Source: a virus | Direction: 5' to 3' (one strand) | DNA: 64,000 nucleotides | Virus record (IMG/VR): IMGVR_UViG_3300045988_112558 | Location: 28,997-92,996 of that record | Shown here: positions 6,461 through 55,918 of the stretch, one piece after another | Position numbering within the stretch: position 1 is the stretch's first letter | Layout of the letters: every line of letters starts with the position of its first letter | Notes under the pieces: model-generated | The model's input: the letters and a program-made list of their open reading frames with translations, nothing else | Told to the model about the DNA's origin: nothing | Databases searched by the model: none | Program-made: the position numbers and the translations under genes

Positions 6461-6533
6461 CGAAAATTAGCGTAGTGGATAACGCGGTATTCTGTAAAAA
6501 TACTTTTCATTGGTTCGAATCCAATATTTTCAT
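6461..6533 (+). tRNA. tRNA-Tyr (anticodon GUA), 73 nt, with a C1·A72 mismatch at the top of the acceptor stem.
   Basis: Hand-folded cloverleaf. Acceptor CGAAAAT/ATTTTCA (6 of 7 pairs). D-stem GCGT/ACGC with loop AGTGGATA. Anticodon stem GTATT/AATAC with loop CTGTAAA (U33, GUA, A37). Variable loop TTTTC. T-arm ATTGG-TTCGAAT-CCAAT. Discriminator T, no encoded CCA. Confidence 0.65.
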
Positions 6534-6589: not shown

Positions 6590-6681
6590 GTGATGGGGTT
6601 AGTTACTTCGAATTTAGCTCAGATGGATAGAGCGATACTCAGTTAAAGTATAGGTCGATGGTTCAAATCCATTATTTCATT
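6590..6681 (+). ncRNA. tRNA-like element 3: well-formed D, anticodon (GUU, Asn-like) and T arms but a non-pairing acceptor stem and A33 in the loop, preceded by the 5' box GTGGTGATGG...TTACTTCGAA. Either a degenerate tRNA-Asn or a tRNA-mimic ncRNA.
   Basis: D-arm GCTC-AGATGGATA-GAGC (6617-6633). Anticodon stem ATACT/AGTAT with loop CAGTTAA (6635-6651). T-arm GATGG-TTCAAAT-CCATT (6657-6673). The flanks TCGAATT / ATTTCAT pair at only 4 of 7 positions. The 5' box at 6592-6611 is shared with units 1 and 2. Confidence 0.4.
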
Positions 6682-6800: not shown

Positions 6801-8435
6801 ATGGGAAAGTTTAACAAAAAGGATGAAGGTGTTAAACCTACGATCGTGAATCACATGGGAGAGAAGGCGTATAAGCCTAACGCAGAAGAAGAGTTGGTAT
6901 CTACGGTAATGACTACCATGTTGTCTGATTCTTATTATGAGAAAGAAAAAGACAAGGTGAACAGGATTAAGGACCTTATGGATCAAGTAGATCCATATTT
7001 CGCAGCACAAACAGCATTGTATGTCAGGAAAGAAGGAAAGCTTAGGTCGGTAACGCATCTTATGGCTTCTGTCCTTGCCAGCAAAGCATCGGGTAAGGAA
7101 TGGGCTTCAAGGTTCTATAATAAGATCGTTATGCGTCCTGATGATATGAGCGAAATCCTTGGCTGCTATGCGGCTCTTAACGACAAAAATCCAAAGAAGT
7201 TAAGAGGAATATCCAGCGCTATTAAGAAAGGATTTAAGACGGCTTTGGAAGGTCTTGATCCGTATCGGATTGATAAGTATAAGATGGACAGTAGGGTCAT
7301 TACTATGGTTGACTTAGTAAACTTATTTCACCCTAAAGGCAATCAGGCTAACAAAACGGCTTTCCAGTACCTTATAGAAGGTCGGTCTTTGTCTGGATTA
7401 TACGAAAGCAAGATTCTTGAAAAAGAAATGTCTAAAGCCGGACAGGACAAGAAAGACAATAAGGAAAAGAAAGAAGCTTTAGGTGACGCTATTCGGGACG
7501 TGGTTTCTAATGTAAAAGGTATGCCTATTTTTAATATGGTTCGTAACCTTGTAAACATAATCAAATACGCGCCTGATCAAATAGATGAAGTTTGTAGGCA
7601 GCTTACAATAGAAGAGAAGGTGCTTAATTCGAAGATGCTTCCTTTCCGTTTTGCTTCAGCTTTCAAAGAGGTTGAAAATATAGGCACTGATGATTCCGAA
7701 AATGATATTGTATTTGAGTCGGATAAAAAACGTGCTAAATTAACAGCGCGTAATAAACATAAGATTTTAGATGCGTTGGAGAAAGCCATAACCATCTCCT
7801 GCAAGAACCTTCCGGTATTGGAGGGGCGGTCGGCTATCCTGATTGACCACTCTGGCTCTGTACGTGGAGATATGGGAGGATCTTCTGAGGTGTCTGCCTT
7901 TAGCAAAACAAGTACGGCTGTCATTGGTAACTTATTTGGCTGTATGATTGCTTCTGTGCTTCCTGACGTATTTATTGGTATGTTTGGTGACGAACTTATC
8001 AATTACGAATATGATAGAAGTAAAGGTGTTTTATGGAATAACAAAAAATCTTTTACTGCCGGAGAAGAATGCGGTGGTGCCACTGAAAACGGTCTTTTTG
8101 CATTCTTGTATAAGTGCGTTAAAGATAAGATCAAAGTAGATAACTTGTACGTTATTTCAGATATGCAGATAGGAGACGGTGAATCTGTTGTATGGGAGAA
8201 AAGTTCCAGTTATGGATATGGTAAATTCGCTGAACTTTTGAAAGGGTTTAAAAAAGTGAATCCAAATTGCAAAATCGTTTCTATTTCTATTAAAGGATAT
8301 GGAAGTGAGATGTTTTACAGAGGATCTAATATCTTGAACATAGCTGGCTGGTCAGAATCTATTTTCGATGTTATTAACAGCAAATTCTGCGGATATAAGA
8401 ATATGATTGAAGAAATTAAGAAAATAAAAATATAA
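6801..8435 (+). CDS. rsr: Ro60/Rsr ortholog: TROVE domain plus a C-terminal von Willebrand A domain with a MIDAS motif.
   Basis: N-terminus VNHMGEKAYKPNAEEELVSTVMTTMLSDSYY matches the Ro60 signature NxxGxxAY...YY. MIDAS DxSGS is present as ILIDHSGSVRGD. Length 544 aa is typical of Ro60. Flanked by terminators 6741-6771 and 8495-8532. Confidence 0.8.
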   Translation: MGKFNKKDEGVKPTIVNHMGEKAYKPNAEEELVSTVMTTMLSDSYYEKEKDKVNRIKDLMDQVDPYFAAQTALYVRKEGKLRSVTHLMASVLASKASGKEWASRFYNKIVMRPDDMSEILGCYAALNDKNPKKLRGISSAIKKGFKTALEGLDPYRIDKYKMDSRVITMVDLVNLFHPKGNQANKTAFQYLIEGRSLSGLYESKILEKEMSKAGQDKKDNKEKKEALGDAIRDVVSNVKGMPIFNMVRNLVNIIKYAPDQIDEVCRQLTIEEKVLNSKMLPFRFASAFKEVENIGTDDSENDIVFESDKKRAKLTARNKHKILDALEKAITISCKNLPVLEGRSAILIDHSGSVRGDMGGSSEVSAFSKTSTAVIGNLFGCMIASVLPDVFIGMFGDELINYEYDRSKGVLWNNKKSFTAGEECGGATENGLFAFLYKCVKDKIKVDNLYVISDMQIGDGESVVWEKSSSYGYGKFAELLKGFKKVNPNCKIVSISIKGYGSEMFYRGSNILNIAGWSESIFDVINSKFCGYKNMIEEIKKIKI

Positions 8436-34680: not shown

Positions 34681-34899
34681 ATGGAATTAAAAGATTTTAA
34701 AGATGTGGTTAGAGTAATGACAAAAGAAGAGTTCGAATCAACAATCGAAGAAGATATTAAATTCGTTGAGGGATTCAAGAATTTCTTAAAACATGATGAT
34801 GCCACGAGAATAGTAGAGCATATCAAGTCTGTGTTAGAAGCATCAGTAGATTACTACTATCCTAATCATCCTGAAGTAGAATTTGAAAAAAGATTTTAA
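34681..34899 (+). CDS. Small acidic hypothetical protein (72 aa).
   Basis: ORF. Confidence 0.45.
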   Translation: MELKDFKDVVRVMTKEEFESTIEEDIKFVEGFKNFLKHDDATRIVEHIKSVLEASVDYYYPNHPEVEFEKRF

Positions 34900-35545
34900 T
34901 ATACAATACGATGTCAATAATATCTTGAACAAATACGGCCACACCGAAATGGGTATGTATAAAATACAGCTCTATATAGAGAATATTTTGGGTAGTATTC
35001 AAAACAAGAAGCCTGTAGACGTGGGAGAAGTCTCTGACGGATACCACACTTTCAATGAATTGTATCGGTATCGCATGTTGTATAACGCTGCCTTCTTTAA
35101 TCTATTAGCCAGAAACGGACAGGTTGAAGTTTGCAAATCAAGGAGACACAGCGATGGAGAAAAATGCTTCGGTTCTGATGATTGGTTTATTGTGATGGCG
35201 ATCCTACCTACCGGTCAGGTATCTAATCACTATGAAAGCAAATACTGGGATTTGTTTGATGTTCCTGAAAGAGAAACCGCTTTCGAATACGATGGCCATA
35301 CACCAAATGAAGCCGCCGACAGACTTAAAAAGTATCTCAAACTGCCTCGTCGTGGCATGACATTCGAACAGGCTTTAGAACGGCTTAAATTAGGTCGTAA
35401 GATAAAAAGAATCGATTGGGGTAAAAAGTATATCTGTATGTTTGACGTAAATATATTGATGGTAGATACAGGTCAAAAAGTAGCATCAAATTGGAATCCA
35501 ACCGAACATGATATTATGTCTAATGACTGGGAGATTGCGGGATGA
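34883..35545 (+). CDS. Two-part protein whose C-terminal 63 aa (nt 35357-35545) is a DUF2829 (Tad2-like) module. Candidate immune-signal sponge (anti-Thoeris type) fused to an unknown N-terminal domain.
   Basis: MTFEQALERLKLGRKIKRIDWGKKY...SNDWEIAG matches the DUF2829/Tad2 pattern M-x-F-x-EAL-x-x-LK-x-G-K/R-K-h-x-R-x-x-W ... DWEI(V). An internal ATG at 35357 could alternatively start a stand-alone module. Confidence 0.6.
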   Translation: MKKDFNIQYDVNNILNKYGHTEMGMYKIQLYIENILGSIQNKKPVDVGEVSDGYHTFNELYRYRMLYNAAFFNLLARNGQVEVCKSRRHSDGEKCFGSDDWFIVMAILPTGQVSNHYESKYWDLFDVPERETAFEYDGHTPNEAADRLKKYLKLPRRGMTFEQALERLKLGRKIKRIDWGKKYICMFDVNILMVDTGQKVASNWNPTEHDIMSNDWEIAG

Positions 35546-45066: not shown

Positions 45067-45776
45067 GATCGCTCCTCCTTATTTTCAGATTCTGCCTCTT
45101 CGAGTATGCTGATCACCTTATCAACAATATCCGAATCAGACATTTTCTCAATAAAAACATCCATTGCCTTAGTTATGTCATTGGCTTCTTTTTCTTCAAG
45201 AGCAATCTCTCCACCGGTAATAGCATCAGATAATGATGTAGATAAGTGTCTTATATTATCAATGCTCATAAACGTAAATGGATTACCACCTTGACCTCCA
45301 CCCATTTCTTTCATGATCTGATATCCACCTGAAATAAGTCTGCCTGATATCGTGGCCAAGGAGGATACGATTAGGGACAGTACCGCCACCTCCGTCCGCT
45401 CCTCGGATACACCCCTCGACCACACGGCTGCCCTTATAGCGCCGGCCAGGTCGTCTATGTATGGCATGAGGTAATCTTCCATCGCTTGTGTTATATCAGC
45501 TATAACCTCACTACGCTCTTTATTTATGTAGTAGATAGAAGCATTGTACTTCTTTATCCCTTTGTCCATATCATTTAAAAGACGCTTGATATTGTGCTTA
45601 TACATAGGACTGGTTTTAATTACTTCCTTTAGCTTAAGAATGTAATTATAAGCCTGGTCATTTACGAACAACGTCATGGTTTCAACCGTTGAATGAAGCG
45701 TGTTGAGGCTGTTAAGAATCTTATCGAAATTGTTTATCAAATAAGCTTTTCTGGCTTTTGCTGCATAGTTAATCAT
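45063..45776 (-). CDS. Hypothetical protein (237 aa).
   Basis: ORF in the operon. Confidence 0.5.
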   Translation of the reverse strand: MINYAAKARKAYLINNFDKILNSLNTLHSTVETMTLFVNDQAYNYILKLKEVIKTSPMYKHNIKRLLNDMDKGIKKYNASIYYINKERSEVIADITQAMEDYLMPYIDDLAGAIRAAVWSRGVSEERTEVAVLSLIVSSLATISGRLISGGYQIMKEMGGGQGGNPFTFMSIDNIRHLSTSLSDAITGGEIALEEKEANDITKAMDVFIEKMSDSDIVDKVISILEEAESENKEERS

Positions 45777-46311
45777 CGCATTCGAATTTTAGATTTTCAA
45801 GTTCATGTATTTGTAACCTAAGAGACTTAATTAAATTCGTTCTCTGTTCCTCTGCATGTTTTAAAGCCTCTTCCTTGCTTTCAAAAGCACAATCCCCTAT
45901 CTGATAAGGGGTGTAACGACCAGGAGTGTCGGCTAATAAAAGACCACCACAATCTTCTATTCTGGCTTTTACCTTTCTTATTTTCCCATCTTTTAGACAC
46001 ATGTCTGTAACCCATACGAATTTACCATATAATTTATCATACTCTTCTGATTTCTCTTCTTGCAATTCATACCATTTAGGCTTAGGAAATCTTAATGTGA
46101 ATTTAACCTCAGTATCTTTTTCTAAGACATTAATATCGTATGCTTCCGGCCACAGCTCTTTTATGCTGTCTTCGTCTTCGGCATACGCTACAAGTATGAA
46201 TGAATCATCGGATTCACCACTACACCAATATGGATATTTTATAGGCCATTTGACTGGACGGTAGTCGTTACCGCAGTCGGATTTTTTAATGTAAAATCTT
46301 GCTCTAATCAT
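45769..46311 (-). CDS. Hypothetical protein (180 aa).
   Basis: ORF in the operon. Confidence 0.5.
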   Translation of the reverse strand: MIRARFYIKKSDCGNDYRPVKWPIKYPYWCSGESDDSFILVAYAEDEDSIKELWPEAYDINVLEKDTEVKFTLRFPKPKWYELQEEKSEEYDKLYGKFVWVTDMCLKDGKIRKVKARIEDCGGLLLADTPGRYTPYQIGDCAFESKEEALKHAEEQRTNLIKSLRLQIHELENLKFECDD

Positions 46312-46318
46312 ATCGTTA

Positions 46319-46630
46319 TTAATCTGATAATTTTTCTATTTTAATTAATTTTGATGATAGATACATATTCCATTTCCCTCTGCCTCTGTCACCTTTTTCG
46401 TTTTGTTTTTGGATTGTCAAGTACAGATCTCCGTCTTCACATACTTCAACTTTTTTCAAGAAGCCTATCATTTCATCTCCTGCTTCGTGTAAAATACGGA
46501 TCTTATCTCCTTCTTTTAACCCATAATTGGAATCAAAGTATTCTTTTTTGATTCTATCAATGTTGTCTTTATGGTTTTTTATAGCATAAAGCTCTTTTCT
46601 TAATAAATAATTTAGTTGTTCTATTGTCAT
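46319..46630 (-). CDS. Hypothetical protein (103 aa).
   Basis: ORF. Confidence 0.45.
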   Translation of the reverse strand: MTIEQLNYLLRKELYAIKNHKDNIDRIKKEYFDSNYGLKEGDKIRILHEAGDEMIGFLKKVEVCEDGDLYLTIQKQNEKGDRGRGKWNMYLSSKLIKIEKLSD

Positions 46631-47184
46631 TTCTTTTCCTCCTTATTTAATGGTATTAATCCTTTCCCGTGCTTATCATACCACAGCATAGCTATACAAT
46701 TCCATGCACATTGTGCAAGATGAAAAGCTCCTGTATCTGAGTCTATTCTTTCCCCTTTCATGTATTCCATCAGGTGTCGAAACATCGCAGCACGGTACCG
46801 TTCAAATCCGTTGTCAAGGTTCTGCCAAGTATTAGGATCGTACTTTTTGGCTCCGGCATGATAGACTTTTACAATGTCCTCAATCTCTTCCATTGGAAGC
46901 AAATCCCATCGTAGTTTATCATCAATGATGTCATTTTTCACCGATTTGTTTTCTATGGGGTCTTTGGTAAGAATAATATCCATAATATCCGTTTCTATGA
47001 CGAACGTCTCCCCATTGCAACAAACCTCAGCATATTTATCATTTACTTCTATGTCTGATACTGCCTCCGCTATAGCTCCTTTGACGATTTTAAATTCGGC
47101 ACTGATTATATCATCTTTTAATATGCGAAAAATAGATCCTTTTGGATAAAGGATATTTTTAGTATTATCATCCATCTTTTCCAT
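46627..47184 (-). CDS. Protein with a phage dATP/dGTP-diphosphohydrolase N-terminal-like domain (DUF5664-type). Candidate nucleotide-pool sanitising or modifying enzyme.
   Basis: KLRWDLLPMEEIEDIVKVYHAGAKKYDPNTWQNL...RYRAAMFRHLMEY...GAFHLAQCAWNCIAML matches the conserved K-x-R-x-x-L-x-P...GA-x-KY...W...RH...G-x-x-HLA pattern of that family. Confidence 0.55.
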   Translation of the reverse strand: MEKMDDNTKNILYPKGSIFRILKDDIISAEFKIVKGAIAEAVSDIEVNDKYAEVCCNGETFVIETDIMDIILTKDPIENKSVKNDIIDDKLRWDLLPMEEIEDIVKVYHAGAKKYDPNTWQNLDNGFERYRAAMFRHLMEYMKGERIDSDTGAFHLAQCAWNCIAMLWYDKHGKGLIPLNKEEKK

Positions 47185-47236
47185 TGCTTTATCGTTGTTT
47201 TACCTCATTTCGATAGTAATATAATCCATCTTCGTC

Positions 47237-47524
47237 TTATACCCTATCATTCCTGTTATTCTCAAAATATTGTCTTACGGCTTCAATCGCCTTATCGTCA
47301 TCAAAAGCCTCTACAAACCCCTCATAGAATCTATTTCGCTCCATAGAGAACGTATTGCTTCCATCCGGAATGGTTCTGAACACAACTACCTTCTCTCCAT
47401 CTACGTTCGTTCCTATGATGTTGTTATGGAGAATAATAGAATACCGCCCAGAGTTTTTGTTCTGGACGACACTATGTTCGAGATTGTAGAGTCTAAGTAG
47501 TTCTCTTATTTCTTTTACTCCCAT
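47237..47524 (-). CDS. Hypothetical protein (95 aa).
   Basis: ORF. Confidence 0.45.
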   Translation of the reverse strand: MGVKEIRELLRLYNLEHSVVQNKNSGRYSIILHNNIIGTNVDGEKVVVFRTIPDGSNTFSMERNRFYEGFVEAFDDDKAIEAVRQYFENNRNDRV

Positions 47525-47525
47525 A

Positions 47526-48242
47526 TTATTTTACGTTTTTAGAAGTTACAGCCTCTTCTCCCCATTTCTTTACATATATAGATCTCATCATGTTCATTAA
47601 ATTAGAGAAAGAAGAGATGGTTCCCATTTCTATACAAAATGCAAGATTAGATTGAAGCATTTCAAGTTCTTTTAACTGCTCTTGAGTTGCTCTGTTATCT
47701 AAAACATATTTATGTTTATTGAATACAATCCAGTTTAACTTATCAGCCATTTCTATATAATCAACATCTTCAAATTTTGATACAGACCTTGAAAGAGTAT
47801 TGTATTTATCCCCTATCTCTATTCTATCCAAAATAAGTTTATCATTTAACCATCCAGTAACTTCTGCATACAGCATAGGATTTAATTCTATAGCGACTAA
47901 TACCCATATGTAGGGATCACACATAACATTTCTGTTTGTTCCTCTTCCTGTAGTCTTATAGGCATTATACCACTTCATTACTTTTATCAAAGAGTTGTTT
48001 TCCACTATATCCATAAACTCTTTCAAGGTTTCACTTTTTATGTATTTCTGTTTTTTAAGAATATAAAATATCCTTTCTGCACTCTCCTTGTTCGAAAGAA
48101 TATTTTCTATTCTCTTATCATTCCACCCCATCTCCACTCTTTTTCTTGTATATGCCTCTTGTAATCCAGTTAATGACATAAAGGAAGTTTTAATGTCCTG
48201 TCTGATTACCACTCCATACAATAACCTGTATTTAGAAATCAT
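47526..48242 (-). CDS. Hypothetical protein (238 aa), possibly DNA-binding.
   Basis: ORF with no confident motif. Confidence 0.45.
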   Translation of the reverse strand: MISKYRLLYGVVIRQDIKTSFMSLTGLQEAYTRKRVEMGWNDKRIENILSNKESAERIFYILKKQKYIKSETLKEFMDIVENNSLIKVMKWYNAYKTTGRGTNRNVMCDPYIWVLVAIELNPMLYAEVTGWLNDKLILDRIEIGDKYNTLSRSVSKFEDVDYIEMADKLNWIVFNKHKYVLDNRATQEQLKELEMLQSNLAFCIEMGTISSFSNLMNMMRSIYVKKWGEEAVTSKNVK

Positions 48243-48362: not shown

Positions 48363-48719
48363 TCACATTATTCCTTCTAAATTTACTTTTATAGAACCAT
48401 TTATGGTTTTAATGCTCCCATCTATGGTTGAAATCACATCATCTATATCATTTATAATGCCTTCCATGTCATCAACCACCTCCTCCATATCAGTTACAGC
48501 CCGATCTGATTCCCAATATCTTTCTGAGTCTTGTAACGATTCCGGTATATTATCTCTCGCCTCCGTCTCTTCATCTAAAATCATATCAATATCATCTTTG
48601 GCTGAATTTATGTTGTGCTTTAACTCCGATAACTTTGATTTGATGTATTCAAAATCTGTTTTATACTTATTTGCGTTTTTGATAACATCTGATATTTTTT
48701 TTCTTCTCTTGTTGTTCAT
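48363..48719 (-). CDS. Acidic hypothetical protein (118 aa).
   Basis: ORF whose stop overlaps the helicase gene start. Confidence 0.45.
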   Translation of the reverse strand: MNNKRRKKISDVIKNANKYKTDFEYIKSKLSELKHNINSAKDDIDMILDEETEARDNIPESLQDSERYWESDRAVTDMEEVVDDMEGIINDIDDVISTIDGSIKTINGSIKVNLEGIM

Positions 48720-50146
48720 GCTTTTATCCTATTATAATATTCGATAATCTTTTCTTTCCTATCTCCCGGTTTTACTGCCATATTCTCAGCCAAGAACCTA
48801 AAATACGACACCGGTATGTCCTTGAATCTAATTCCTTCATATTTTCCAAACCACATTATTATACTGTCAAGATCGTCTTCTCTCCTACCATCTCCATTCA
48901 CAGATTTAAGAGAAGCTGCCCGGCGAAGGATTTCGTCTTTGGTAATAATATCCCCCATCCTTATATTGGATAGAAGCTGATTGCCGGCAAACATACACCA
49001 GCCCTTAGAAGGAAATTGTTCGATCGTTAAATCTTCTATCCGGCCGAAACGCCTCATGTTGTCGCAGCAATCAACTATCAGTGCCTCTTTCTTGTCAGGA
49101 TGAATACGAACGCACCTGCCGAGCACCTGGTAATATGTTGAATATGAGAATGTTGGGCGCCCAAACATCACACAATCAAGTTCGGGAAAATCAAATCCGG
49201 TAGCAAGCGTTGAATAATTAAACACGACCTTCAACTTACCTTCTTTGAAATCGGATATGATTTGTTCTCTTTTCTTTTTGGTTGTTAGCGATGTTACGAC
49301 GCCGGTTATGGCTCCCATCCTGGCATTCATGAACTCTGATATTCTATTACATGATTCGATAGAATCCATGCAAACCAAAATGGCTTTACGCTCGTTCATA
49401 AGCTGAAGAAGACGCTTATAGATAGAGTTGTTTAAGCCATTTCGTACAATACTTTCTTTAATAGATTCGTTGGTGTATTCGGCCCCGGTACTGTTTAACA
49501 TCAGAGCCGATTCATCAAAAGACCATCGTTCGTACTTAAGTGGGCACCAAAACCCTTGAGAAGTTAGCTCTTGTATTTGAGTTACGTGAACTATCTTCTT
49601 AAAGAAGTTATGTTCGTCTTTCGTCAGCATATTGAGCTTGCTATAGTTCCCTTCCAGCATGGAGCTGTAGGTCCGGAGGCGGCAGGGCGTGGCAGTGAAG
49701 CCCAGCACCTTCGCCTCTGGGAACTCGTTCATAAACTCCATAAATTCAGAACCTTCTTCTGGGGAATATCCTGAATGACATTCGTCTATCAATAAGGTAT
49801 CTATCCCTATATCCTTCAACTTCGCTACATCTTTCTTTATGCTCTTTAATGTTGCATAAGTCATAGCCGACAGTTCTTTTACACCACATGAAGCAGAATA
49901 TATAGTAGGCTCAGAGCCGAATGATATAGCCTTCGCATAATTCTGCTCCAGAATCTCTTTAGATGGTTGCAATACAAGAATAGGTCTTTTTAATTCATGA
50001 GCTATCTTGCTAATTATTAAAGACTTCCCCGCTGCACACGGCAAGACTTCTATGCCAGGCTTCTTAGATCTTCCTGTAAGAAACTTAAGCCCGGCATCTA
50101 CTGCCTCTTTTTGGTAAGGTCTAAGTTCAAAGCCCACTGCAATCAA
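48716..50146 (-). CDS. Superfamily-2 DEAH-box DNA helicase (476 aa).
   Basis: LRPYQ Q-motif region, Walker A PCAAGKS, motif II DECH, motif III TATP. Confidence 0.7.
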   Translation of the reverse strand: MIAVGFELRPYQKEAVDAGLKFLTGRSKKPGIEVLPCAAGKSLIISKIAHELKRPILVLQPSKEILEQNYAKAISFGSEPTIYSASCGVKELSAMTYATLKSIKKDVAKLKDIGIDTLLIDECHSGYSPEEGSEFMEFMNEFPEAKVLGFTATPCRLRTYSSMLEGNYSKLNMLTKDEHNFFKKIVHVTQIQELTSQGFWCPLKYERWSFDESALMLNSTGAEYTNESIKESIVRNGLNNSIYKRLLQLMNERKAILVCMDSIESCNRISEFMNARMGAITGVVTSLTTKKKREQIISDFKEGKLKVVFNYSTLATGFDFPELDCVMFGRPTFSYSTYYQVLGRCVRIHPDKKEALIVDCCDNMRRFGRIEDLTIEQFPSKGWCMFAGNQLLSNIRMGDIITKDEILRRAASLKSVNGDGRREDDLDSIIMWFGKYEGIRFKDIPVSYFRFLAENMAVKPGDRKEKIIEYYNRIKA

Positions 50147-52386: not shown

Positions 52387-52520
52387 AATGCTTGGTCAGT
52401 TCTTCTGGTTCTAAATCTTGTCCAAAATCCATGTTAAAAATATCGTAATTAGTAAAGCACTTAAAATCACTGTTCCCGCAGGCAGGAAATCTATGAATGC
52501 TGCTTTTATTTCTTCAATTA

Positions 52521-52542
52521 GGCCCAAGTGTAACCTTGGGCC
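52521..52542. other. Perfect 8-bp hairpin GGCCCAAG-TGTAAC-CTTGGGCC just downstream of the flotillin gene stop.
   Basis: The T-tract is on the plus-strand side only. For the minus-strand operon the downstream tract is A/U-poor. The role is unclear (terminator or protein-binding site). Confidence 0.3.
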
Positions 52543-52549
52543 ATTGTAT

Positions 52550-54250
52550 TTATTTTTTGTCATCTCCTTTTAATTTCTTTAAAGTATCTGCAATCGGAAG
52601 CTGATCAATGACTCCCAATGCCGGAGCGACGGTCTTGACAACATTGTTAAGGAAATTACCGGTGCTGTTTTGACCACCGTCAAATACCGTGATATTTCCG
52701 AGATTGATGTGCTCGAACGCCTTAACCTGTTCTCCAGCAATTTCTTTCCACTGATTAACCATCTTGTACTGAATGGCGATCTGAGGATTGGATTCTGCTG
52801 CTTCCACCATAGCCTTAAATCCGTCGGCTTCTGCCATTAACGACTTTTTCTTACCTTCGGCTTCTGCCTCCAGCTTCATCTGAATAGCCTTTGCCTCTGC
52901 CTCAGCTTTTGCCAAATGTGCTGCTGCCTCAGCCTCAGCCCGGCGTTTGATCTTCTCGGCCTCAGCATCAGCTTGTAATATAGCCTCTTCCTTCTGGGTT
53001 TCAGCCGGCACAATCTTTTCAGCCTTAAGCGCAGCCTGAACTTTCTTAGCCTTAGCTTCTTCCACTTCTTTATCAGCAAGCTCTTTTGCCGTTTTTACAG
53101 CCGCTTCCGATTTAACTTTTTCTTCTCCGGCCTTCTTTTCTGATTGAGCTTTGATAATCTGTAGTTCTGATACTGACACAGCAACCTCCTTCTGGGCATT
53201 GTTGTATCCTATAGACGCATTTTTCTCAGCCTCAGCCTTCTTAATCTGAGCTTCAGAGTCTTGTATTGCTATAGCTGCTTCCTTGTCAGCTTCAGCCTTA
53301 TTCTTTCCGACTTCTTCCATCCTTTCAGCCTCGGCTTTATTTACTTCAAGTTCTGCCTTAGATCTTACGATCGCCGATTCCTTGTCGGTTAAAGTTTTTG
53401 CGATAACCGCAGCCCTGTCTCTATCTGCTTGAGCTACACCGATCTGTTTCTCCTTATCGGTTAAAGCTAAAGCTATTTCTTTTTCTTTCTTCGTTTCAGC
53501 TACTATCGTTTCCTTTTCTTTTTCAGTACAAGCAATTTGAATCTCTTGTTCTTTTTTGGTATTAGCCACAGCCGTTTCTTTCTCCTTCTGCTGTACAGCA
53601 ATCTTAATAGCACCCAGCTTCTCCTGTTCTTCGATATTAGCCTGTGCCTCGTTCAGAGCCCTACTTTCAGCTTCCTTACCAAGGTTCATAATATAACCGG
53701 CTTCGTCTCTGATGTCACTGATGTTGATGTTCAGGAGGTAAAGACCTAACTTGTTAAGCTCGTTATCAATGTTCTTTCTCGCCTTATCCAAAAACTCATC
53801 CCTGTCAGAATTAAGTTTTTCGATCGTCATTTCAGCAATAATCAAACGCATCTGACCGTAAACGATGTCCGTAATAAGATTTTCAGTAGATTCGGTATCC
53901 ATCCCCAAAAGTCTTTCTGCCGCATTTTGCATGATTTCGGGATTTGTACTGATAGCTACTGTAATGGTCGTAGGTACATCTACTCTAATATTCTGAGATG
54001 ACAAAGCACCGGTAAGCTTGCAATCTATTTGCATAGGCTCCATTGACAAAACATCATAGCTTTGAATAATAGGCAAGACAAATGCCGCTCCACCATGATA
54101 TAATTTCGCCGATTTCTTTTCCCCACCTGTCTTACCATAAACGACCAAGACCTGATTAGGCTTACATCTACGATACCTTGATAAGACTCCGATGATTGTC
54201 AAAATAATCACTACAGCTAAGATAGCTGACACGTACATGATTGTTGTCAT
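52550..54250 (-). CDS. Flotillin-like SPFH/band-7 domain protein (566 aa) with an N-terminal membrane anchor and a long Ala/Glu/Lys-rich coiled coil.
   Basis: RYRRCKPNQVLVVYGK...GGAAFVLPIIQSYDVLSMEPMQID matches the start of the flotillin SPFH domain (compare B. subtilis FloT/YuaG). EA-repeat coiled coil at about aa 190-460. Confidence 0.8.
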   Translation of the reverse strand: MTTIMYVSAILAVVIILTIIGVLSRYRRCKPNQVLVVYGKTGGEKKSAKLYHGGAAFVLPIIQSYDVLSMEPMQIDCKLTGALSSQNIRVDVPTTITVAISTNPEIMQNAAERLLGMDTESTENLITDIVYGQMRLIIAEMTIEKLNSDRDEFLDKARKNIDNELNKLGLYLLNINISDIRDEAGYIMNLGKEAESRALNEAQANIEEQEKLGAIKIAVQQKEKETAVANTKKEQEIQIACTEKEKETIVAETKKEKEIALALTDKEKQIGVAQADRDRAAVIAKTLTDKESAIVRSKAELEVNKAEAERMEEVGKNKAEADKEAAIAIQDSEAQIKKAEAEKNASIGYNNAQKEVAVSVSELQIIKAQSEKKAGEEKVKSEAAVKTAKELADKEVEEAKAKKVQAALKAEKIVPAETQKEEAILQADAEAEKIKRRAEAEAAAHLAKAEAEAKAIQMKLEAEAEGKKKSLMAEADGFKAMVEAAESNPQIAIQYKMVNQWKEIAGEQVKAFEHINLGNITVFDGGQNSTGNFLNNVVKTVAPALGVIDQLPIADTLKKLKGDDKK

Positions 54251-54281
54251 AACTTTTAAAATCTAATTGTTGATAAAAAAA

Positions 54282-54776
54282 TTAGATACTTAATTCTCCT
54301 TCTTCATATTTTATATTCGCCTTGTCGCCGTTTTTGTAGGTTTTTCCAGACAAGCATTTTACTCTCATTTGCTCTTGTCTTCCATTTTTCGAAATATTTA
54401 CCATATAATGATTCTTCCCTGATCTAAATACTATCTCCACTTCTCTTCCGTTTAAATCTTCCGGACATTCGTACACCATTTCTTGCTTTAACTTAAGAAG
54501 TAACTTATATACGTAAAACAAAACGATAAAGAAAAACGACCCTATCACAACCCCTACTAAATGGGAACCCGAAAAGTAGGTAGTCCAGCTATATCCAAGA
54601 ATAAAATGTGTTATGCCCTTGAATGATATAATGTCCGACAAAGACATACTTAAATCAGAAGCACTGTCAATGTCAATATCCGTATCCAGATCAGATCCTA
54701 ATATCGATAACAAAAACTGTATAACAAAAGCAAATGACGCTATTAAAGCCATGCATAAAATTATGTCACTTCCCAT
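54282..54776 (-). CDS. NfeD-like membrane protein (164 aa), the usual operon partner of SPFH/flotillin proteins.
   Basis: Three hydrophobic helices followed by a beta-rich C-terminal domain (REVEIVFRSGKNHYMVNISKNGRQEQMRVKCLSGKTYKNGDKANIKYEEG). Synteny immediately upstream of flotillin, as in yuaF-yuaG. Confidence 0.55.
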   Translation of the reverse strand: MGSDIILCMALIASFAFVIQFLLSILGSDLDTDIDIDSASDLSMSLSDIISFKGITHFILGYSWTTYFSGSHLVGVVIGSFFFIVLFYVYKLLLKLKQEMVYECPEDLNGREVEIVFRSGKNHYMVNISKNGRQEQMRVKCLSGKTYKNGDKANIKYEEGELSI

Positions 54777-55017
54777 ACCCTTCTGTTATTATTTTGTAAA
54801 CAAGATCAGTCATATCTTTGATGGTCTCCATATCATAATCAATAATAACAATATTGAATTTTTGTTCCACCATCACATCAAGCTCAATTCGATCAATAGA
54901 ATCTAATCCAAGTTCTTTAAACGTCACATCTTCTTCATGAACTATATCTATTTCCGAATTAAGAAACTGAGTAATAATTATATCCTCTATTATCTTTCTG
55001 ATTCTTACTTTTTCCAT
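54766..55017 (-). CDS. Acyl carrier protein (83 aa).
   Basis: FKELGLDSIDRIELDVMVEQKF carries the phosphopantetheine-attachment DSL/DSI serine motif and helix II. Acidic, and the size is typical of an ACP. Confidence 0.75.
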   Translation of the reverse strand: MEKVRIRKIIEDIIITQFLNSEIDIVHEEDVTFKELGLDSIDRIELDVMVEQKFNIVIIDYDMETIKDMTDLVYKIITEGYGK

Positions 55018-55718
55018 TGCTTTCTAATTTTGTTAAATAAATACGTTTTTATGTTTTTCAATCGCTCTTTGTCTGTTTCAGAACTTCCGGTAAACAAATA
55101 ATCCGGATTGCCTTTAGCCGGCGGCGTAGGCAATTTAGATACGGCAAACAACCAATCCATTTCCTTATTCTTCTTAGACTCCAAATAAGGCTCGGTAGCG
55201 ATCTTAAATTTTTCAGCTATTAAGTCAAAGAGCTTTGAATTTTTAAGGTTCATATGTACTGAAAAAGCCTGAGAAGGTGGTTTCCATATGAAGTTGCATA
55301 AGCTCATTGTATAATCTCCTGACTCTGCTATATAAGATTCCGTTACCTGAAGTATGACCTCTTTCTTGAATGAGGTGTTACCCATAAACCAACACAATCT
55401 GGATTCTGCTTCTTTTCTGCTGACACCTATGTCTTTTGAATATGATTCGTACATTCCTATCATAATCCTCAACGTTTCCAGAACCTCGTCTGTCATTTCC
55501 GGTGTCTCTATATAATTTACAAAAGACGTTCCTTTGTTGGTTAATCTCATCACGCCTGATTTTAATTTCTCAACCAGGCCAAGCTCTATATACCTCCCAG
55601 CATCTTCTTCCGGCATGGCTTCGATCATAACCGAATCCTTCTGTCTTATGGCAAGAAGATTAGCAAGATCATTAGGAGTCATGTCTGATGCTGCAAGTTG
55701 TCTGAAATTGATGTACAT
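55005..55718 (-). CDS. Hypothetical protein (237 aa), first gene of the ACP/NfeD/flotillin operon.
   Basis: ORF overlapping the ACP start by 13 nt. Confidence 0.5.
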   Translation of the reverse strand: MYINFRQLAASDMTPNDLANLLAIRQKDSVMIEAMPEEDAGRYIELGLVEKLKSGVMRLTNKGTSFVNYIETPEMTDEVLETLRIMIGMYESYSKDIGVSRKEAESRLCWFMGNTSFKKEVILQVTESYIAESGDYTMSLCNFIWKPPSQAFSVHMNLKNSKLFDLIAEKFKIATEPYLESKKNKEMDWLFAVSKLPTPPAKGNPDYLFTGSSETDKERLKNIKTYLFNKIRKQWKK

Positions 55719-55720
55719 TC

Positions 55721-55918
55721 TTAATCAGCTTTAATGAAAATAACATTCTTGTTATCTTGTCTATCAACATGTTCACATGGATCAATAATTATGTCTATAC
55801 ATGAACAATAATTGTAATTTTCGAATATACACCTATCGCATGTATCACCTTCCACACATTTTAATCTTACAAGTCCGGCAGTAAACACTTCTCCTACTTT
55901 AAATTCCTTCTTTTCCAT
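55721..55918 (-). CDS. Small Cys-rich protein (65 aa).
   Basis: CVEGDTCDRCIFENYNYCSCIDIIIDPCEH. Confidence 0.4.
   Translation of the reverse strand: MEKKEFKVGEVFTAGLVRLKCVEGDTCDRCIFENYNYCSCIDIIIDPCEHVDRQDNKNVIFIKAD

Follow-up and report, generated by a model that had tools for sequence, protein, structure and literature searches.

A small gene on the minus strand (54766..55017) of the 64,000-nt stretch of phage DNA analysed here, in the following called the window, codes for a genuine protein of the acyl carrier protein (ACP) fold and of the phosphopantetheine (PP)-binding family. Stated like this, the presence of a stand-alone ACP adds nothing to public annotation, and it is a recurrent kind of phage gene. 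New here are its restriction to one phage lineage, three allele classes at a single slot, its fast evolution, the loss of Ser40, the occurrence of truncated copies, and a flotillin operon of the Bacteroidales type that comes without an ACP. Only the way in which the serine and helix II behave in the phage population is, in our view, worth follow-up. As the best explanation we favour, with a confidence that stays slightly under even, that the gene provides a dispensable accessory ACP which would be charged by the host.

Identity and distribution of the phage ACP

The reading frame starts with ATG, ends with TGA and encodes 83 amino acids with a pI of 4.35 and a net charge of -10. Exactly as described in the initial annotation, it contains the motif LGLDSIDRIEL, at residues 36-46 (54880..54912, minus strand), which corresponds in alignments to the DSL of solved ACPs. 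Ser40 (codon TCT, 54898-54900, minus strand) is the residue predicted to carry 4'-phosphopantetheine, placed at the N-terminus of helix II by the PDB alignment and by the structural model. A 97-aa open reading frame on the plus strand that overlaps the gene (54613-54906) is without support.

The assignment as an ACP, originally proposed from the motif, was borne out by profile searches. Pfam PF00550 (PP-binding) matches with 28.0 bits against a gathering cut-off of 20.8 (E=2.7e-6), and PHROG 5934, 'acyl carrier protein', with 35.7 bits (E=1.4e-8), residues 9-75 falling on positions 18-86 of the 93 profile positions. A phmmer search against the PDB returned 114 ACP chains at E<=1 and only acyl carrier proteins, the best of them at 6e-6. 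In these alignments Ser40 coincides with the DSL serine of the solved proteins (D39-S40-I41), that is, with the conserved serine of the (D)S(L/I) signature at the N-terminus of helix II, and the closest solved relatives are ACPs of type II fatty acid synthesis (FAS). An AlphaFold2 model built from an alignment of 47 sequences (pLDDT 79) has helices at residues 2-19, 40-54, 60-65 and 69-79, Ser40 being the first residue of the second one. The four-helix bundle typical of the PP-binding/ACP-like superfamily is found in this model and in a Foldseek comparison to the PDB, which retrieved type II ACPs with TM 0.8-0.85, rmsd 1.6-1.9 A and a probability of 1.00, including an AcpS-bound ACP (4dxe). 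The name DUF1493, which some NCBI metagenome records give to this protein, finds no support in Pfam: at E<=1 the scan lists only PP-binding and a weak ACP_SdgA_C.

The phage ACP is not an orthologue or extra copy of the housekeeping AcpP. The NCBIfam models for AcpP (TIGR00517, NF002148-51) give about 29 bits where the cut-offs range from 66 to 106, the best scores being 29.8 and 28.6 bits against cut-offs of 71 and 70.45; since these equivalog scores are so far under the cut-offs, the protein cannot simply be taken for one more housekeeping ACP. With AcpP of bacterial type II FAS it shares fold, length, acidity, the position of the serine and an acidic recognition helix, at about 30-35% identity. 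Few bacterial proteins are as conserved as AcpP; the phage ACP, in contrast, is fast-evolving and is located outside any fab gene cluster. The acidic residues D39, D42, E45 and E51 are present in the phage protein and align to what we take to be the acidic helix-II contacts of E. coli ACP with AcpS.

Over 6 kb around the gene the window shares 96.8% identity with phage csAssE-Sib (GenBank OR575929.1), an unassigned member of the Caudoviricetes from human gut, Russia (151,256 bp, 206 features). In csAssE-Sib the same gene, with a few residues different, is annotated 'acyl carrier protein' (WOZ57347.1), and its neighbours are those of the window, a 237-aa gene, the ACP, a transmembrane protein and a flotillin. 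Copies in JGI/IMG are named 'acyl carrier protein' as well. The label is already in GenBank and IMG, and the identification as such is not new. A literature search found no paper describing csAssE-Sib or its ACP, and searches on crAss-like phages together with flotillin and on phage ACPs together with phosphopantetheinyl found nothing relevant.

This is a very abundant phage of the human gut, hundreds of near-complete contigs of which carry the ACP gene. In a large protein collection 945 homologues were found; the best 120 of these 945 are all >92% identical, and the contigs that carry them reach about 150 kb in length. When 1.84 billion representatives were searched exhaustively with phmmer, identities of at least 77% were confined to the csAssE-Sib-like lineage; the next matches were generic ACPs at <=45%, with nothing in between. 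As judged from these searches, the family is restricted to csAssE-Sib-like phages of the human gut.

Small PP-binding proteins have been described from other lytic phages that do not possess a synthase, such as vB_EliS-R6L (ORF32; Erythrobacter), R16F (ORF117; Vibrio) and flavobacterial jumbophages, where these stand-alone ACPs were annotated as auxiliary metabolic genes and their function was called unclear (PMC5463345, PMC10152775, PMC13573597). The stand-alone phage ACPs of PHROG 5934 resemble the one studied here in being small PP-binding proteins without a synthase. However, beyond its own lineage the window ACP has no relative at more than about 45% identity, and allelic replacement, serine loss or a flotillin neighbourhood are unreported for the others.

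Genomic neighbourhood and the search for partner enzymes

The ACP gene is embedded in a long co-directional block on the minus strand with the order primase-like gene, DnaB, 200-aa gene, 65-aa gene, 237-aa gene, ACP, 164-aa gene, flotillin and PD-(D/E)XK nuclease. Its neighbours are thus replication genes, the 237-aa gene, a membrane protein and a flotillin, and not the genes of a fab cluster. According to the list of open reading frames, the ACP start overlaps the end of the upstream 237-aa gene by 13 nt, while its 3' end overlaps the start of the downstream 164-aa gene by 11 nt. From these overlaps we infer that the three genes are probably translationally coupled.

The initial annotation had seen no synthase, acyltransferase or phosphopantetheinyl transferase (PPTase) in the window, and none came to light from the annotation of the 96.8%-identical relative or from Pfam scans. 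It had also suggested looking for fatty-acid or polyketide partners in the rest of the genome; in the relative, that is, in the complete 151-kb genome of csAssE-Sib with its 206 annotated features, there is no PPTase, FAS/PKS enzyme, acyl-ACP ligase or acyltransferase. Furthermore, Pfam detected no partner-enzyme or FAS families, and no adenylation or ketosynthase signature, in about 45 uncharacterised proteins of csAssE-Sib and the window, comprising 30 uncharacterised non-structural csAssE-Sib proteins of at least 110 aa, 10 further open reading frames of the window and the immediate neighbours. As far as profile methods reach, the ACP appears to stand alone in this phage.

In all three ACP allele classes the gene next upstream is the conserved 237-aa gene (55005..55718, minus strand), which overlaps with its stop the start of the ACP; the synteny was seen in the contigs L085, L174 and L185-186. 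One might suppose from this invariant position, and from the overlap of stop and start, that the ACP is the dedicated carrier for a cryptic phage enzyme, the 237-aa protein or another unannotated one, which modifies a lipid, a surface component or DNA. The 237-aa protein would leave room for such a role, as searches of Pfam, NCBIfam, PHROG, PADLOC and the PDB gave no match and no homologue of known function. However, its sole similarity, a weak one, is to winged-helix DNA-binding domains, and its pN/pS is 0.03 while the ACP changes freely. Moreover, 237-aa proteins that are 98-99% identical are paired with ACP alleles only 38% identical to each other, which is hard to reconcile with a specific pair of enzyme and carrier. 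With no PPTase, adenylation, ketosynthase or acyltransferase signature in the Pfam scans, we regard a dedicated phage partner as very unlikely. The idea that the 237-aa protein is a hidden Sfp-type PPTase found no support by sequence either, as none of the five resources gave any such similarity.

The membrane protein of 164 aa (54282..54776, minus strand), whose start overlaps the ACP stop, has three predicted helices, an acidic loop with the sequence DTDIDID, which is conserved in an alignment of homologues, and a C-terminal beta domain. It matches no HMM in Pfam or NCBIfam, including NfeD and YqiJ, and its single-sequence AlphaFold2 model is of low confidence (pLDDT 54) and usable for topology only. 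By its architecture the protein may be called NfeD/YqiJ-like. It is followed by a flotillin of 566 aa (52550..54250, minus strand), recognised by the Pfam domains Band_7 and Flot and as FloT-like by NCBIfam. These two genes have the same architecture as the bacterial yqiJK and yuaF-floT operons, but bacterial operons of NfeD/YqiJ and flotillin contain no ACP. In metagenome-assembled genomes of Bacteroidales (Dysgonomonadaceae, Prevotellaceae, Tannerella) a membrane protein of 32-36% identity lies directly upstream of a flotillin of 43-48% identity, and the same arrangement occurs in the metagenomic locus L176. There is no ACP close to the pair in the five Bacteroidales loci (L180-L184) or in L176, and flotillin-bearing phages beyond the lineage (Vibrio phage KIT04, MT835492) have no adjoining ACP.

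To these comparisons we can add 80 IMG/VR loci which were picked via the upstream 237-aa gene and are unbiased with respect to the ACP. Flotillin is intact in 49 of them and deleted, split or frameshifted in the other 31, and where it has been lost, the ACP and usually also the membrane protein remain. An inherited operon of ACP, NfeD and flotillin was rejected on these grounds: the Bacteroidales and L176 pairs come without an ACP, one of the allele classes described below (class B) comes without the pair, and flotillin is deleted in many ACP-positive genomes. The pair is probably a host operon that was acquired separately, from Bacteroidales. We conclude that its adjacency to the ACP is a phage-specific juxtaposition in a variable accessory region and not evidence for a shared pathway. 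When intact, flotillin is under strong purifying selection (pN/pS 0.04). The Bacteroidales counterparts of the pair (52550-54776, minus strand; 32-48% identity) also point to the host clade, and the hosts of csAssE-Sib-like phages are probably Bacteroidales.

Variation of the ACP in the phage population

For 79 of the 80 loci the ACP could be assessed. An intact protein of 82-83 aa is present in 73, whereas six copies (about 8%) are truncated or frameshifted; a stop at codon 43 was seen in one copy. This shows that the ACP is dispensable in a minority of genomes. Pairwise Nei-Gojobori comparison of the same loci gave a pN/pS of 0.47 for the ACP (pS 0.085, pN 0.040), against 0.03 for the 237-aa gene, 0.00 for the 200-aa gene, 0.05 for DnaB, 0.06 for the 164-aa membrane protein, 0.04 for flotillin and 0.05 for the nuclease. 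The ACP is among the few weakly constrained genes in an otherwise strongly constrained block, and both its truncation in 6 of 79 copies and its pN/pS of 0.47 against 0.03-0.06 in neighbours support the status of an accessory gene.

The same figures could, however, belong to a gene in decay which has little current function, or to a liability that is sensed by host defence, in which case changes leading to loss would be neutral or favoured. The stop at codon 43 and the broken copies, the high pN/pS, the many deletion-fusion reading frames with junctions inside the ACP and the lost or broken flotillin next to it in 31 of 80 genomes would all fit. Against this, about 92% of the ACP copies are intact, an ACP-like reading frame occupies the same slot in all three diverged lineages, a pN/pS of 0.47 is still <1, and within the allele class of the window there is hardly any change in helices I and IV or in the hydrophobic core. 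We therefore think that decay or liability is an improbable explanation.

Two further observations concern the region rather than the ACP itself. In many natural deletion variants the ACP has become joined to the C-terminus of either the membrane protein or flotillin, or to out-of-frame sequence, making 52411-55017 (minus strand) a deletion hot spot; junctions inside the ACP are found in the reading frames P0121, P0123, P0124 and P0128-P0134, further fusion variants are P0218-P0263, and several junctions lie just after GLDS[IL]. Another fast-evolving small gene is the cysteine-rich 65-aa reading frame two genes upstream of the ACP (55721-55918, minus strand), with a pN/pS of about 1.1. Of all 30-nt windows in the 10.5 kb, the one with the highest diversity (55797-55826, pi 0.22) lies within this gene, which is only 59% identical in L085, where its flanks are 99-100% identical.

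The slot after the 237-aa gene is occupied by three classes of ACP alleles which are mutually 38-40% identical, while the flanking genes of the same genomes are 76-100% identical. Class A is the type of the window. Class C (L174/L175) has 88 aa with the canonical motif DDLGLDSLD and matches PF00550 with 32.7 bits, so that D-L-G-L-D-S-[IL]-D is kept despite an overall identity of 38% to the window class; the neighbouring proteins of this phage are 62-83% identical to those of the window, and it also has the pair of membrane protein and flotillin downstream. Class B, known from three independent contigs (L085, L185, L186), is an intact reading frame of 84 aa with a net charge of -12, flanked by proteins 97-100% identical to those of the window and without membrane protein and flotillin. 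All three of its copies have Tyr or Phe at the position of the serine (LAFDYLDKIEL, ...FDYFDK..., ...FDFFKK...), and its PF00550 score of 18.3 bits is under the cut-off, one copy having no match at all. Five of the six nucleotide differences among the three class B copies fall into codons 40-45 and none is synonymous, whereas the 237-aa gene shows a pS of 0.10-0.17 between the same genomes. A mosaic difference between near-identical genomes was also seen in a helicase (ResIII/Helicase_C), which has 789 aa in L085 (8625-10994) and 476 aa in the window (48716-50146, minus strand), with only the C-terminal 360 residues aligning.

Within class A, 114 distinct homologues were compared. Their variation is concentrated in codons 40-48 and 58-65, corresponding to the start of helix II and to helix III in the model, and the most variable stretch is codons 40-48 (54874..54900, minus strand), in which helix II begins with Ser40 and makes its first two turns. 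Hardly any change is seen in helices I and IV or in the hydrophobic core. Taken together, Ser40, the beginning of helix II and helix III form the partner-binding face of ACPs. The nucleotide diversity of the patch is 0.124 against a regional mean of 0.044, a value that ranks only 11th among the 30-nt windows in 10.5 kb. In view of this rank, escape from CRISPR targeting is a less pressing explanation for the variable patch. Positive selection at the protein level limited to codons 40-48 is not demonstrated, since pN/pS is 0.51 in these codons against 0.43 in the rest of the gene and synonymous diversity in the patch is likewise raised.

Ser40 itself is replaced in 16 of the 114 distinct sequences, by Phe (8), Pro (6) or Tyr (2). 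Counted by contigs, roughly 76 out of about 1900 (about 4%) lack the serine, and they represent 11 sequence backgrounds. Some of these variants were found repeatedly, in 18-20 contigs that come from unrelated studies and reach about 150 kb in length, and their reading frame is otherwise intact. Two of them, a Phe and a Pro variant (P0045 and P0061), were read at the DNA level and are single-base changes of TCT, to TTT and CCT. Helix II further shows the recurrent changes E45K/T/V and L46P/F and, at position 41, seven different residues, including I41P; of these, E45K, L46P and I41P would be expected to impair recognition by the transferase as well. Conservation of the serine among homologues, on which the initial annotation had made its view depend, was hence found only in part: it holds for all 73 intact IMG/VR copies and for class C at 38% identity, but not for the approximately 14% of distinct close homologues with Phe, Pro or Tyr, nor for class B.

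Several other causes of this pattern were considered, and the first two were rejected. Avoidance of a restriction site appeared conceivable in that the Ser40 substitutions all destroy GANTC, but the window contains 269 such sites where 284.5 +/- 13.7 are expected. Hypervariation driven by a diversity-generating retroelement (DGR) does not fit, as inspection showed that the substitutions in the ACP patch are not adenine-specific and that the DGR variable region of the relative is in another gene. Loss of the serine is also not clearly associated with loss of flotillin, which is broken or absent in 4 of 8 loci without and in about 24 of 80 loci with the serine. The DGR annotated in csAssE-Sib (VR and TR repeats and a reverse transcriptase; 45751-47816 in csAssE-Sib coordinates, outside the window) has its VR in the 3' end of a 'hypothetical protein' gene with the note 'putative tail fiber protein' and is unrelated to ACP variation.

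Both class A and class C keep GLDS, and within class A more than 90% of the copies do, which suggests that the holo form matters; if it does, and no PPTase is provided by the phage, the ACP must be loaded by a host enzyme of the AcpS type. According to the host-charged reading that we favour, transcription of the ACP would take place together with the replication/early gene block, and this host transferase would modify Ser40, turning the apo-protein into its holo form. During infection holo-ACP might then serve the type II fatty-acid and lipid enzymes of the host as one more carrier, or compete with the existing one. It would be a dispensable accessory gene for host takeover. The replacement of Ser40 in 16 of 114 homologues, the Tyr/Phe of class B in an intact reading frame, the changes E45K, L46P and I41P and the NCBIfam AcpP scores far under the cut-offs count against this reading.

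A cofactor-independent adaptor or decoy, in which the ACP fold serves as an acidic module for protein interaction with no need for the serine, would account for the variants without serine, which persist as intact reading frames across many contigs and backgrounds. Such a protein might bind or titrate host AcpS, an enzyme of FAS or lipid A synthesis, a stringent-response enzyme or a defence sensor, or it might be a structural subunit of a phage complex; structural-subunit ACPs, from complex I and FtsHi motor complexes, are indeed among the best Foldseek matches. Class B has remained open and acidic (-12) without the serine in three of three copies. However, with PF00550 scores below the cut-off or no match it may simply be decaying, and GLDS is kept in the two other classes, at 38% identity to each other, and in more than 90% of copies. 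The fast evolution of the gene (pN/pS 0.47; alleles of 38-40% identity between flanks of 76-100%) is typical of proteins which interact with the host, and its variation clusters on Ser40, the helix II start and helix III, the partner-binding face, but the pN/pS of 0.51 in the patch goes along with raised synonymous diversity and is no demonstration of positive selection. On balance we regard an adaptor or decoy role as rather doubtful, yet as an alternative to be taken seriously.

A related possibility, which we judge to be unlikely, is that the protein is an ACP mimic whose recognition face (Ser40, the first turns of helix II, helix III) is engaged in an arms race with a host protein. The latter could be an ACP-dependent enzyme that is inhibited by the phage, or a defence sensor which recognises the phage ACP. 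If this were true, the recurrent loss of the serine and the replacement of alleles at a fixed slot would be adaptive and not decay. The variants without the serine constitute a natural apo-only set with which a cofactor role of phage ACPs could be tested against a protein-binding role.

Other features of the window

Two tRNA genes (6461-6533 and 6608-6681, plus strand) lie directly upstream of a gene for a 544-aa protein (6801-8435, plus strand) with a TROVE domain (52.7 bits), as in Ro60. This raises the question of a phage Ro60 with Y-RNA-like partners; a search with Rfam found only the tRNAs. At 34883-35545 (plus strand) the window encodes a protein of 220 aa in which a WDGH domain (E=9e-37) and a Tad2-like Thoeris anti-defence domain (E=4.5e-11) are recognised, making it a candidate anti-Thoeris sponge.
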